This document shows, one piece after another, positions 2,816 through 7,985 of a DNA stretch of 51,660 nucleotides (the first letter of the stretch is position 1; every line of letters starts with the position of its first letter). Source of the DNA: an uncultured Candidatus Saccharibacteria bacterium (GTDB lineage: Bacteria; Patescibacteriota; Minisyncoccia; Phycocordibacterales; UBA6065); the NCBI GenBank assembly GCA_964368565.1, contig CAYJAC010000001.1, positions 30,571 through 82,230 of the forward strand, written 5' to 3'. The notes beneath the pieces are model-generated. The model made no database searches. It saw only the letters and a list, made by a program, of their open reading frames with translations, and had not been told where the DNA came from. The translations under genes were made by a program, and so were the position numbers.

Positions 2816-3829
2816 TTATTTTAACATAACTATTTCTCTGATTTTCTCCGCGAGCTTATATGAATTTCCATGGTTGATAAGACCAAGATAGGACTGGACA
2901 GATTGCGACTTTTCCTTATTTCGTAATACGCCGTTCATCATCCTCTTTCTCGTCGTTGTTCGGAGTACTCGGTGATCGGGAAAATGTACCCAGCCCAAAA
3001 AATCCACACCTGAAGCGAATGTCTTTATGAATACCTTGTCGGGATGTAAAGAGAGTTTTAACCTTTCTTTGAGAAAACCTGATATCTGAGAAATAAGAGC
3101 CTCGACAGATGCCTTATCCGGTAAAAGAATCGCAAAGTCGTCCGCGTACCGAATATAATATTTCGTCTTCAGTCTATGTTTAGCGAATTGATCGAACTCG
3201 TTCATGTATATATTCACGAGCAGTTGCGAAGTAAGATTGCCGAGCGGCAAGCCGATGCCGAATTTTGTCGAGTAAAAACTTCCACTTATTTCGTATAGAA
3301 GTCCCATAATGTCAGGGTCAGGAATATATCCCTCAAGGATATGAAAGAGCGTCTGTTGGTCTATCGACGCAAAGAATTTCCGTATATCGCATTTCAAAAC
3401 CCACGCTGTCTTTGTCCTATTCTTTGAAACCTTATATCCAAATGCGCGGAATCGTCGTATCGCCCGATGCGATCCCTTCCTCATCCGGCAGGAGTATGAA
3501 TCAGTGATAAAAGTCCGGTCGAAAAATGGGTAGAGTTTTCTATAGAGCGTGTGATGTAAGAGTCTATCCCGTACACTTGCCTTGTGGATATCGCGCGGTT
3601 TCGGATCGTTTATTTTAAAAGCCTCATACGAAGCGTGCCTGTATGATTTAGCAGCGAGGTCTTCGTGGAGAGATATAACGTTCCTCATCAGATCCCGCTC
3701 AAATTCAAGTACGTCTTTCTTCTTGCGTTTACCTGTCCTGAATTCTTTCCAGGCTAACAGAAGATTTTCTAGAGAGATGATATCCTTGTAGGCATGAACA
3801 CATTGAATACGACCCGAACTTTGAGGCAA
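2816..3829 (-). CDS. Diversity-generating retroelement reverse transcriptase
   Basis: 337 aa. It has 'DPKPRDIHKASVRDRLLHH', a DGR-type motif 4 'LGNLTSQ' (I/LGxxxSQ) and the catalytic 'YADD'. It lacks group II maturase/En domains, and a TR/VR pair is adjacent. The predicted start is TTG, so the exact start is uncertain. Confidence 0.9.
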   Translation of the reverse strand: MPQSSGRIQCVHAYKDIISLENLLLAWKEFRTGKRKKKDVLEFERDLMRNVISLHEDLAAKSYRHASYEAFKINDPKPRDIHKASVRDRLLHHTLYRKLYPFFDRTFITDSYSCRMRKGSHRAIRRFRAFGYKVSKNRTKTAWVLKCDIRKFFASIDQQTLFHILEGYIPDPDIMGLLYEISGSFYSTKFGIGLPLGNLTSQLLVNIYMNEFDQFAKHRLKTKYYIRYADDFAILLPDKASVEALISQISGFLKERLKLSLHPDKVFIKTFASGVDFLGWVHFPDHRVLRTTTRKRMMNGVLRNKEKSQSVQSYLGLINHGNSYKLAEKIREIVMLK

Positions 3830-3849: not shown

Positions 3850-4212
3850 TTGCCCGTTATACACAAGATCAAACAGGCTTATTTGCTGTGGCATGGATTT
3901 TGTAGCGAGCTGCCGAAACAAGACAGATATTCGTTGGGTTTTCGCATAGATTCGTTGTTCGTGGAAGCAATCGAGGCCATCGCTGCCGCCAGTTTCTTGT
4001 CGCCCCAAGAAAAGCATCCGTACGTTCGCCTCGCCATACGCAAGCTCGACGCGCTCAAGGTACTGCTCATGATTCTTTGGGAGACAAAATCGCTCGACGA
4101 CAAGAAGTATATCGCATTATCGGTAAGCCTCGATGAAATCGGCAGAAATTTGGGCGGTTGGAGCGGGCAACTGACCAAACAAAACTCCCCAGCCAAAGCC
4201 GAGGAGAAATGA
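3850..4212 (+). CDS. avd: Avd-like four-helix-bundle protein (23S rRNA intervening-sequence protein family), DGR accessory variability determinant
   Basis: 120 aa. 'ELPKQDRYSLGFRIDSL...EAI..A' and the C-terminal 'EIGRNLGGW' are typical of the family. It lies next to RT and TR, but on the opposite strand. The start is TTG. Confidence 0.75.
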   Translation: MPVIHKIKQAYLLWHGFCSELPKQDRYSLGFRIDSLFVEAIEAIAAASFLSPQEKHPYVRLAIRKLDALKVLLMILWETKSLDDKKYIALSVSLDEIGRNLGGWSGQLTKQNSPAKAEEK

Positions 4213-4217
4213 GCGAG

Positions 4218-4342
4218 TTGCGTGACGGAGAGCCGGGTTGTTGCCATTCCAGTCGTTGTCCAACCAGTTCCAGTTGAGGACAACCTTGCCGCCGTTCTCG
4301 TAGAGATACGGGACGTTGAGGTTGCCGTCGCGGTTCTGCACG
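4218..4342 (-). repeat. DGR template repeat (TR)
   Basis: 125 bp matching 4678-4802 at a constant offset of 460. It is the adenine-rich copy (32 coding-strand A; reading frame rich in AAC/AAT Asn codons: 'NLNVPYLYENGGKVVLNWNWLDNDWNGNN'). Confidence 0.9.
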
Positions 4343-4594
4343 TTATGTGCGCGATGCCTTCCATGCCACCACCCCTTGAATGCTCTCAGGGCTGAATCGT
4401 ATTCGGCATCATAATGCCTTAGCATTGCGCACCAAGTAGCTTCATTTTTGAAGTGTCTGCATATGCCCTCCGTCCGAAACCGTGGCCGCAGACGCTCTCA
4501 GCATATGGATACTAGTTTCGGCCGCGGGAAGCCGTAACCGCCCGCAGATTCGCCTACTACCGGAGTCATCATATCAAATTTCACGTAAAAATTT

Positions 4595-4625
4595 AGCCCG
4601 GACATCGCTTGCGCGACGCCGGGCT
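4595..4625 (-). promoter_or_regulatory. GC-rich hairpin with a GCAA (GNRA) loop downstream of VR
   Basis: The stem is agcccgg / ccgggct (7 bp) plus an inner tcgc / gcga. The loop is ttgc on the plus strand, which reads GCAA on the coding strand. It lies 52 nt 3' of the VR end. Confidence 0.45.
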
Positions 4626-4672
4626 AAGAACTAAGTACAAAGAGCTAATGCTCAGTGTCTTAGGTATGAGAA

Positions 4673-5314
4673 CTAACTTGCGTGACGGAGAGCCGGGTAG
4701 AAGCCATCCCAGTCGCGGTCCAACCAGCCCCAGTCGAGGACAACCTCGCCGCCGTCCTCGTCGAGAAACGGGACGCTGAGGTCGCCGCCGCGGCTCTGCA
4801 CGACCGAAGCCCAACCGAAAGGCACTTTGCCCTTGAGGTATTTCCGGAAAAAGACGATTCCTTTCTTCTGGATTTCCTCTAGGTCGCGCAGTCCGAGACA
4901 GGTCTTGAGAAGTTTGTTGTCCTCCTCCTTGAGCTTGGCATAGACCCTGTTGCCCGTGGTCCAGTTGCCGTTCTTCTGGCCTTCGTGGAGCCACTGATCG
5001 ATTGAGCTCGCGTCGTATTCGGTCGGGCCAACATTCTCCAGTTCGGGATGAATGACTTTCTTCATCCAATCTGGGTAGATCGGCTTGACCGAGCGATCGA
5101 CACGAATGATCGAGTCGATCATGGGTTCCGGCTCAGGGATGGAAACGGGTTTAACCTTGACGGTCAACTCCGCCTCGCCCCGTGCGAGCAGGATGACTGA
5201 TTTGAGGTTCTCTCCGGTCGAGAGCCAGTCCAGGTCGGACGTGATTCCATCATTGCGCTGAAACGCAAACTCGAGCTTTTGGCCGGCGCCCTGACTCATT
5301 GCGAACGTATTCAT
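4673..5314 (-). CDS. DGR target (variable) protein; the C-terminal 41 codons are the VR
   Basis: Intact 213-aa ORF with no obvious signal peptide or TM segment. It ends '...VQSRGGDLSVPFLDEDGGEVVLDWGWLDRDWDGFYPALRHAS'. Confidence 0.85.
   Translation of the reverse strand: MNTFAMSQGAGQKLEFAFQRNDGITSDLDWLSTGENLKSVILLARGEAELTVKVKPVSIPEPEPMIDSIIRVDRSVKPIYPDWMKKVIHPELENVGPTEYDASSIDQWLHEGQKNGNWTTGNRVYAKLKEEDNKLLKTCLGLRDLEEIQKKGIVFFRKYLKGKVPFGWASVVQSRGGDLSVPFLDEDGGEVVLDWGWLDRDWDGFYPALRHAS
4678..4802 (-). repeat. DGR variable repeat (VR)
   Basis: There are 17 mismatches to TR. Sixteen fall where TR has a coding-strand A, none at G or C, and one at a T (4762 vs 4302). Confidence 0.9.
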
Positions 5315-5607
5315 GGTATTTTACTTTCCCTAATATGAGCGAGCTCCGTCGGAGCATGCTCGATTGGTTATGCTTGAATACCGGAGTGGTAGTCATAGCC
5401 AGGAAGCGCCGAAAATCAGCACCTTTTGGCTATGACTGCCCGCAAGTTGTATCAATGAGCTTACGTAAATATTATATACCCTAAAACAACATCTGTCAAG
5501 GGTGTTTGCGGTACAATTTAGTGGCCTAAAACATGGCTATTTAGAAAAATAGCTTACCAACACCTCCCTCCTTGACTCCCTAGAGGGTCTGCGTCATCCC
5601 TGTATGT

Positions 5608-7869: not shown

Positions 7870-7912
7870 GATTTACACAGCCTTCTCGGACTCCGAACCT
7901 ATCACATGAATG

Positions 7913-7985
7913 TCCGCCCAGTTGGAATCGAACCAACGACCCACTCCTTAAAAGGGAGATGCTCTACCAACTGAGCTATGGGCGG
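7913..7985 (-). tRNA. tRNA-Lys (anticodon UUU)
   Basis: Hand-folded cloverleaf: acceptor ccgccca/tgggcgg, D arm gctc-agttggta-gagc, anticodon loop cTTTTaa, T arm gttgg-ttcgatt-ccaac. CCA is not encoded. There is an unusual C1:G72 pair and a U27-U43 mismatch. Confidence 0.85.

Follow-up and report, generated by a model that had tools for sequence, protein, structure and literature searches.

The variable protein of a complete diversity-generating retroelement in a Saccharibacteria genome is assigned to the UVR2 class and probably carries a divergent C-type-lectin-like domain

Hardly any other group carries as many diversity-generating retroelements (DGRs) per genome as the candidate phyla radiation (CPR) bacteria, or Patescibacteria, and neither the ligands of their DGR targets nor the site at which these act is known. 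Wu et al. 2018 (PMC5758913) left open the fold of the target classes UVR1-6, and Roux et al. 2021 (PMC8144416) left open whether CPR targets are true non-membrane targets. We studied one such DGR in a 51,660-nt stretch of DNA (hereafter the window, whose coordinates are used throughout) from an uncultured Candidatus Saccharibacteria bacterium (contig CAYJAC010000001.1). An earlier note, made from the sequence alone, had described the open reading frame (ORF) at 4673-5314 on the minus strand as a small, apparently cytoplasmic DGR target whose variable C-terminus lacks the usual lectin signature. The locus thus raises the question of what kind of protein this DGR diversifies, on which scaffold and in which compartment. 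We found that ORF 4673-5314(-) is the genuine variable protein of a complete DGR. Alignments place it in an already catalogued class, and structure prediction suggests that its conserved domain is a stripped-down relative of the C-type lectin (CLec) fold. The cassette comprises the following elements.

4673..5314, minus strand: target (variable protein) gene, 213 aa plus stop, placed in the CPR 'UVR2' target class from the ORF list, its homologues and its identity with reference target t354.
4678..4802, minus strand: variable repeat (VR), codons 172-212, delimited by the ungapped match to the template repeat (TR) and by family entropy peaks at TR AAY codons.
4218..4342, minus strand: TR, containing 10 AAY codons when read in the VR frame, recognised by its pairing with the VR and as a short second match in the genome search.
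3850..4212, plus strand, opposite to target, TR and reverse transcriptase (RT): avd accessory gene, matching NF033474 DivGenRetAVD and bAvd, in the CPR 'B3' layout.
2816..3829, minus strand: DGR RT, 337 aa, RVT_1 E 8.2e-20, containing LGNLTSQ.

The VR and TR align without gaps over 125 nt and differ at 17 positions, 16 of them TR adenines and the other a T-to-G change. All 10 AAY codons inside the block are altered in the VR, or 11 of 11 when the border codon 171 is counted. The core pattern of the repeat occurs twice in the window against an expectation of 0 by chance, and never in shuffled sequence. The final 20 nt of the block are invariant. Homology between the repeats ends at ...CGTCACGCAA, after which the VR reads GT-TAG; as the earlier note had it, a single codon (Ser) separates the TR-matching segment from the stop. 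Twenty codons of the TR carry an adenine in the VR frame, allowing at most 7e18 protein variants, and the AAY codons alone would give about 10^12 by our arithmetic (15^10 to 15^11). The sole mismatch away from an adenine lies in codon 185 (4760-4762, minus strand), where the TR has TAC and the VR GAC. Directly 5' of the block, codon 171 (4803-4805, minus strand) reads AAC in the TR and GTC in the VR, and for this reason the mutagenised stretch may begin one codon before the ungapped block.

The same pattern was found across the family. In an alignment of 110 relatives, the VR columns with high entropy (2.5-3.3 bits) are exactly those at which the present TR has AAY, GAC or AAG. Low-entropy columns are V172, L179, V181, P182, L184, V191, W195, W202, P207, L209 and R210, and the invariant scaffold residues that the earlier note had listed agree with the family alignment. 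Since the entropy peaks coincide with the mutable codons of the TR, the whole family is evidently diversified at homologous positions.

The target also adjoins a DGR-type RT and an Avd gene. The LGNLTSQ of the RT is presumably the DGR-type (I/L/V)GxxxSQ motif. Matches of the avd product were under the curated cut-offs, both for NF033474 DivGenRetAVD (E 5.8e-14, 52.3 bits, cut-off 80) and for bAvd (E 6.2e-8, 33.5 bits, cut-off 40). On the minus strand, read 5' to 3', the order is sigma-70 consensus, target ORF, two hairpins, TR, antisense avd and RT. In the survey of Wu 2018 (PMC5758913), 90% of CPR DGRs have this B3 layout with its inverted avd. Taken together, the adenine-directed differences and the neighbouring genes indicate that the DGR target is real and complete, and probably active.

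The target itself had no match among Pfam, NCBIfam, PHROG or PDB sequences, in line with the earlier note, which could place no motif in the N-terminal part. Its remark that the signature of FGE-type variable domains is missing was likewise borne out, with no Pfam match to FGE-sulfatase (PF03781) or DUF1566 in the query and 49 relatives at E <= 1. The note's description of ORF 4673-5314(-) was correct on every point; according to the ORF list, the frame has no further in-frame start upstream.

The note had named an already catalogued family as one ground for refutation, and such a family was indeed found. A word-seeded search returned 224 relatives, mostly of 190-230 aa, none of them (0/224) with a Pfam domain; the only name given to them was 'hypothetical protein', and one came from 'Candidatus Taylorbacteria'. 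An exhaustive profile search extended the family to 1349 clusters at 50% identity with E <= 1e-3, 413 of which had E <= 1e-30. Among 400 other genomes sampled evenly from the phylum, 18 had a family match, scattered across many families and often accompanied by a second short match (the TR) about 350 bp downstream. As the reference set we used Supplementary Data 8 of Roux et al. 2021 (PMC8144416), which still labels its targets by the classes of Wu et al. 2018. Within it, t354 (LBPL01000001.1, labelled UVR2) is 49% identical to the target over 197 residues (BLASTP, E 2e-61), and t345, of UVR2 subfamily B, is homologous over the whole length (hhalign probability 99.2%). The family is thus already listed as UVR2. 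By its sequence motifs the target falls in the 'VDRS / YPDW / HPELE' subfamily of UVR2 and in neither the 'IDCDA / LNANVLD / FFWGTIYR' nor the '...RFxAVRK' subfamily. The second of these three, that of t345, makes up the bulk of the weaker genome matches.

In the original description, genes of UVR2, 3, 5 and 6 matched nothing with an assigned motif, and the UVR2 fold could not be assigned by Phyre2 or PSI-BLAST (Wu 2018, PMC5758913). CPR targets are generally without transmembrane (TM) segments or known domains (Roux 2021, PMC8144416; Wu 2018, PMC5758913). On these alignments the target is an ordinary member of a large, catalogued, Patescibacteria-specific class and no new kind of system. Two relatives, P0121 (792 aa) and P0122 (658 aa), have three to four tandem UVR2 domains after a common N-terminal region of about 130 aa, and part of P0121 is in addition similar to a different class of CPR targets (reference t305, 'misc').

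To what fold this class belongs was addressed with AlphaFold2, using a 49-sequence alignment for the full-length protein and 110 sequences for the core (residues 62-213). The full-length model (mean predicted local distance difference test score, pLDDT, 91.5) consists of three helices, a lower-confidence linker and a core that begins near residue 66. The core model reached a pLDDT of 95.1 and a predicted template modelling score (pTM) of 0.89. The protein was divided accordingly.

5159..5314, minus strand: N-terminal three-helix module, residues 1-52, with model helices 8-20, 25-31 and 36-44, supported by alignment.
5120..5158, minus strand: Pro/Glu-rich linker, residues 53-65, with pLDDT 68 for residues 51-60, variable and gapped in the family alignment.
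4676..5119, minus strand: conserved alpha/beta domain of about 150 aa with the VR, residues 66-213, defined by core-model confidence and family conservation.

In the core model, strands were predicted at residues 69-71, 84-87, 99-101, 105-108, 172-174, 179-187, 190-197 and 208-211, and helices at 121-133 and 142-160. From residue 105 onwards this gives the order beta1-alpha1-alpha2-beta2-beta3-beta4-beta5, with the VR spanning beta2 to beta5. In DGR CLec proteins the elements run beta-alpha-alpha-beta4, with an antiparallel beta2-beta3-beta4(-beta4') sheet after the two helices and beta1 paired antiparallel to beta5; the part of the VR that escapes mutation specifies beta5, which is invariant, and the binding site holds an aromatic residue that does not vary (Handa et al. 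2016). In element order, as judged with DSSP, the model agrees: two helices lie between beta1 and beta2, and strands beta2, beta3 and beta4 follow. Its invariant tail P207-A212 includes strand 208-211, and W195, W197 and W202 are invariant within the VR. Combining the model with the TR codons, we found that the mutable codons take alternate positions along strands beta3 and beta4 and that the beta4-beta5 loop is filled by them. Because mutable positions on a beta3-beta4 hairpin and adjoining loop, held in an invariant frame, follow the scaffold logic of DGR CLec proteins, we take the UVR2 domain to be a ligand-binding domain of CLec-like type, minimal and highly divergent, with a probability of roughly 0.65 given the model.

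This reading changes the weight of an observation made in the earlier note. The terminal G-F-R is indeed absent, yet the departure is smaller than it appeared, as P-A-L-R-x-A occupies the place of G-F-R / R-F-x-G-V and forms the predicted last strand. The note had also wavered between a different diversification scaffold and a divergent CLec fold. The predicted element order suits the latter; the lack of any significant structural or profile match agrees with the former. The structure prediction and fold search that it proposed gave, respectively, a confident model and no significant neighbour, CLec or other.

Several results weigh against a CLec assignment, and some of them speak at the same time for a truly non-CLec scaffold, a new CPR alpha/beta fold presenting a hypervariable beta-hairpin and loop. 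Foldseek searches with the full-length and domain models returned nothing at E <= 0.001 from the PDB or BFVD, so that neither the 350,542 PDB chains nor BFVD hold a significant neighbour of a confident model (pLDDT 95). Of the PDB alignments, just one was both long and coherent, that to the C-terminal domain of Bd2740 (8oks_B), with 107 columns, a root-mean-square deviation of 4.7 A, E 1.4 and 10% identity, and its template modelling score of 0.47 on the target lies under the usual same-fold line. Profile links to CLec families are absent as well. Against the CLec2 (DUF1566-type) alignment from the Roux reference set, hhalign gave a probability of 0.07%; phmmer and hmmsearch searches of the PDB and a hidden Markov model search of Pfam with the query and 49 relatives found no such link, and Pfam found no CLec family in the subfamily-B proteins. 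Residues 66-104, a beta-rich part of about 40 residues that contains four short strands, correspond to nothing in the minimal CLec description. The comparison with CLec covered element order, VR position and the last strand; in a true CLec fold, beta1 would in addition pair with beta5, the helices would be perpendicular and the variable side chains would cluster on one face. A new scaffold would also fit the failure of Phyre2 and PSI-BLAST to assign UVR2.

What speaks against a new scaffold is that element order, VR position and invariant last strand are exactly as in DGR CLec targets. Moreover, the only PDB alignment with a coherent topology involves a variant of CLec, the Bd2740 domain being described by its depositors as a C-type-lectin variant that forms an Mtd-like trimer (PDB 8OKS). 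Known CLec targets are mutually undetectable by sequence and only weakly detectable by structure, and new CLec variants are expected for such domains (Roux 2021, PMC8144416). We consequently regard a non-CLec fold as unlikely, though as a serious competitor to the divergent-CLec reading.

The location of the protein was judged by a crude hydropathy test, the 19-residue Kyte-Doolittle mean (a TM helix needs about 1.6), and by a lipobox search. By this heuristic the target has no signal, lipobox or TM helix: its highest 19-residue mean is 0.73 and no lipobox was found, which agrees with the export signal that the earlier note had reported missing. Among 267 relatives, only 6 exceed 1.6, and the hydrophobic stretch is N-terminal in only two or three. 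Cytoplasmic DGR targets have been predicted in multicellular bacteria, where they were proposed to be intracellular sensors (Thiohalocapsa PB-PSB1; Dore et al. 2024, PMC10907252). We put a cytoplasmic location of the present target at about even odds, and an intracellular role is possible.

In one relative, P0150 (locus L010), the UVR2 domain is preceded by a C4 zinc finger of the ClpX type (PF06689, E 1.2e-17). This fusion was seen once, on a metagenome contig of 1.9 kb whose GC content shows no break at the junction, and it may be genuine or a chimera of the assembly. A search aimed at further fusions of this kind found none, so we rejected the zinc finger as proof of a cytoplasmic location and kept it as a weak hint only.

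The N-terminal module bears on the same question. Residues 1-52 align with the N-termini of UVR1 (t357), UVR5 (t365), UVR6 (t364) and other UVR2 references. A profile of the module hit 18 of the 400 other phylum genomes, always at the start of an ORF of 190-280 aa, and the C-terminal halves of these ORFs belong to at least four VR-domain types (UVR1, UVR2 subtypes, UVR5 and UVR6). The module had no match in Pfam or the PDB and occurs once in the present genome. A second N-terminal module (MKYGELNLGQ...) is common to UVR1 references and some relatives of the target. Myb_Rap1 was considered as an identity for the first module and discarded, as the marginal matches in seven relatives fall outside it. 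Judging from these alignments, the exchange of the module among CPR targets is domain shuffling of the kind inferred by Roux et al. Its presence on several target classes therefore suggests a common handle, probably for a conserved partner or for oligomerisation.

Alternatively, and irrespective of its fold, the target may be an extracellular adhesin directed at particles or at the host of the episymbiont, leaving the cell by an unrecognised route with the N-terminal module as export or docking signal. Characterised cellular DGR targets are mostly surface proteins (Roux 2021, PMC8144416), and a host interaction has been proposed for CPR DGR targets, at least as cited in Dore 2024 (PMC10907252). 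In several target classes the module is strictly N-terminal, like a targeting signal, and a few relatives (P0041, P0075) have a hydrophobic helix in its place. Set against this, about 98% of the 267 relatives have no Sec/Tat signal, lipobox or TM segment, the module resembles nothing known in Pfam or the PDB, cytoplasmic targets are predicted in other bacteria (Dore 2024, PMC10907252), and the one zinc-finger fusion, on its single 1.9-kb contig, would add a cytoplasmic domain. On balance we place an adhesin somewhat below an even chance. A receptor-binding protein of a phage or particle, similar to Mtd, could dispense with export altogether if released by lysis; Mtd-type targets have no signal peptide. 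The DGR does lie in an island of about 6 kb that adjoins tRNA-Lys and holds the remnant of a large serine recombinase. However, the island contains no virion gene, the cassettes of relatives sit among housekeeping genes, and neither a PHROG match nor a BFVD structural neighbour was found, all of which makes this origin very improbable. A phage tail-fibre identity in particular was rejected, as no virion genes were present in the island or at the relatives' loci. Finally, the non-CLec fold and the intracellular role could both hold, making UVR2 a non-lectin, diversified intracellular sensor or binder, of phage or host-derived proteins for instance, whose N-terminal module couples many CPR variable domains to one conserved partner. 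We consider this combination quite improbable.

Under the divergent-CLec reading, a working model can be proposed. Following the Bordetella-phage paradigm, the RT and Avd would reverse-transcribe TR RNA with misincorporation at adenines, and the mutagenised cDNA would replace the last 42 codons of the target gene. The product would be a three-part protein with a three-helix module of about 45 aa, a Pro/Glu-rich linker and a compact alpha/beta domain of about 150 aa. In that domain, the invariant Trp, Gly and Pro residues and the tail P-A-L-R-H-A (beta5) would serve as the frame, and the mutable beta3-beta4 hairpin and beta4-beta5 loop as the display. The protein would act either as a soluble cytoplasmic binder or sensor, or outside the cell after export via an unrecognised route.

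Two further elements of the cassette may bear on expression and retrohoming.

5471..5499, minus strand: perfect sigma-70 consensus promoter TTGACA-17-TATAAT, a 12/12 consensus match, 157 nt upstream of the target ATG.
4593..4627, minus strand: GC-rich hairpin with a GCAA loop followed by a U-run, about 50 nt 3' of the VR, the second of the two hairpins.

The consensus match suggests that the target gene has its own promoter. The 96-nt stretch 4585-4680(-) folds as RNA with -40.9 kcal/mol (z = -6.4), and its hairpin at 4593-4627(-) could equally be a DGR target-recognition hairpin, a terminator of the target gene, or both. Another terminator-like hairpin with a T-run lies at 4185-4206(-), directly 3' of the TR, where it falls inside the 3'-terminal part of the antisense avd; it could terminate TR transcription or work in both directions. 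The target gene (4676-5314, minus strand) is GC-rich, with 57% GC and 74% GC at third codon positions (GC3) in a window of 46% GC. The VR alone has 69% GC. Elsewhere, GC3 is 48% in polA and 46% in the RT of the target's own cassette.

The genome is 797 kb and 94.7% complete, a size in keeping with CPR/Patescibacteria. A genome search found no paralogue of the target, the TR being the sole other match. The island around the DGR also holds a stop-broken large serine recombinase and a toxin-antitoxin-like pair, and adjoins tRNA-Lys(UUU) at 7912-7985(-). Between 5608 and 7985 lie the stop-interrupted recombinase gene, a Panacea/RelE-like gene pair and the tRNA, and this region looks like a decayed integrative island. 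In three relatives (loci L003, L007 and L008) the cassette has the same order, target-TR-(avd)-RT, and is flanked by unrelated housekeeping genes. A fourth relative, P0045 at locus L005, has NifU on one side and ferredoxin/PFOR-type genes on the other, lies more than 8 kb from any RT or avd and has an unusually hydrophobic VR-like tail; it is a stand-alone and possibly frozen copy of a target.

The locus is a clean and complete example of the commonest CPR case, with an intact cassette, its own predicted promoter and every AAY codon rewritten. To this class our analysis adds a confident model of a UVR2 domain, which resembles a stripped-down CLec; a very large family, almost uniformly without export signals; and a short N-terminal module that is swapped among otherwise unrelated CPR target classes and points to a common partner. 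If true, the non-lectin alternative would mean modular, DGR-driven intracellular recognition special to ultra-small bacteria. The known picture of DGRs is unchanged and what is to be tested has been narrowed.

Among known systems, the closest in scaffold logic are Mtd of Bordetella phage BPP-1, TvpA of Treponema denticola, AvpA of Nanoarchaeota and TaqVP of Thermus aquaticus. Like the present target, they carry a C-terminal, AAY-rich VR of about 42 codons. They share with it the predicted beta-alpha-alpha-beta4 order, variable residues from about beta2/beta3, invariant aromatic residues in the VR and an invariant last strand from the unmutated 3' end. Unlike them, the target is without the FGE-sulfatase/DUF1566 signature or a significant structural or profile match; it is much smaller, has no long inserts, carries an extra beta-rich N-terminal part of 40 residues, and has P-A-L-R in its tail where known CLec targets have G-F-R / R-F-x-G-V. 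The C-terminal domain of Bd2740 from Bdellovibrio bacteriovorus, a calcium-free trimeric CLec variant compared with Mtd by its authors, gave the only long structural alignment to the target, though not a significant one. Bd2740 is a surface fibre tip without DGR diversification, unlike the target.

The targets of Thiohalocapsa PB-PSB1 (PMC10907252) are, like ours, DGR targets without export signals. In those proteins, however, a recognisable CLec is joined to a STAND NTPase or to domains of MoxR-associated conflict systems, and their RT is of clade 5; the present target is of the CPR group and has no more than a helical module of 45 aa in that place. The closest counterpart is the UVR2 class itself (Wu 2018, Roux 2021). 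Homology with t354 is full-length, the VR frame ...VPYL.E.G..VVL.W.WL...W....PAL..AS is common to both, and the class and the present locus share the B3 cassette layout and the lack of an assigned motif. Between the UVR2 class and this target we found no essential difference.
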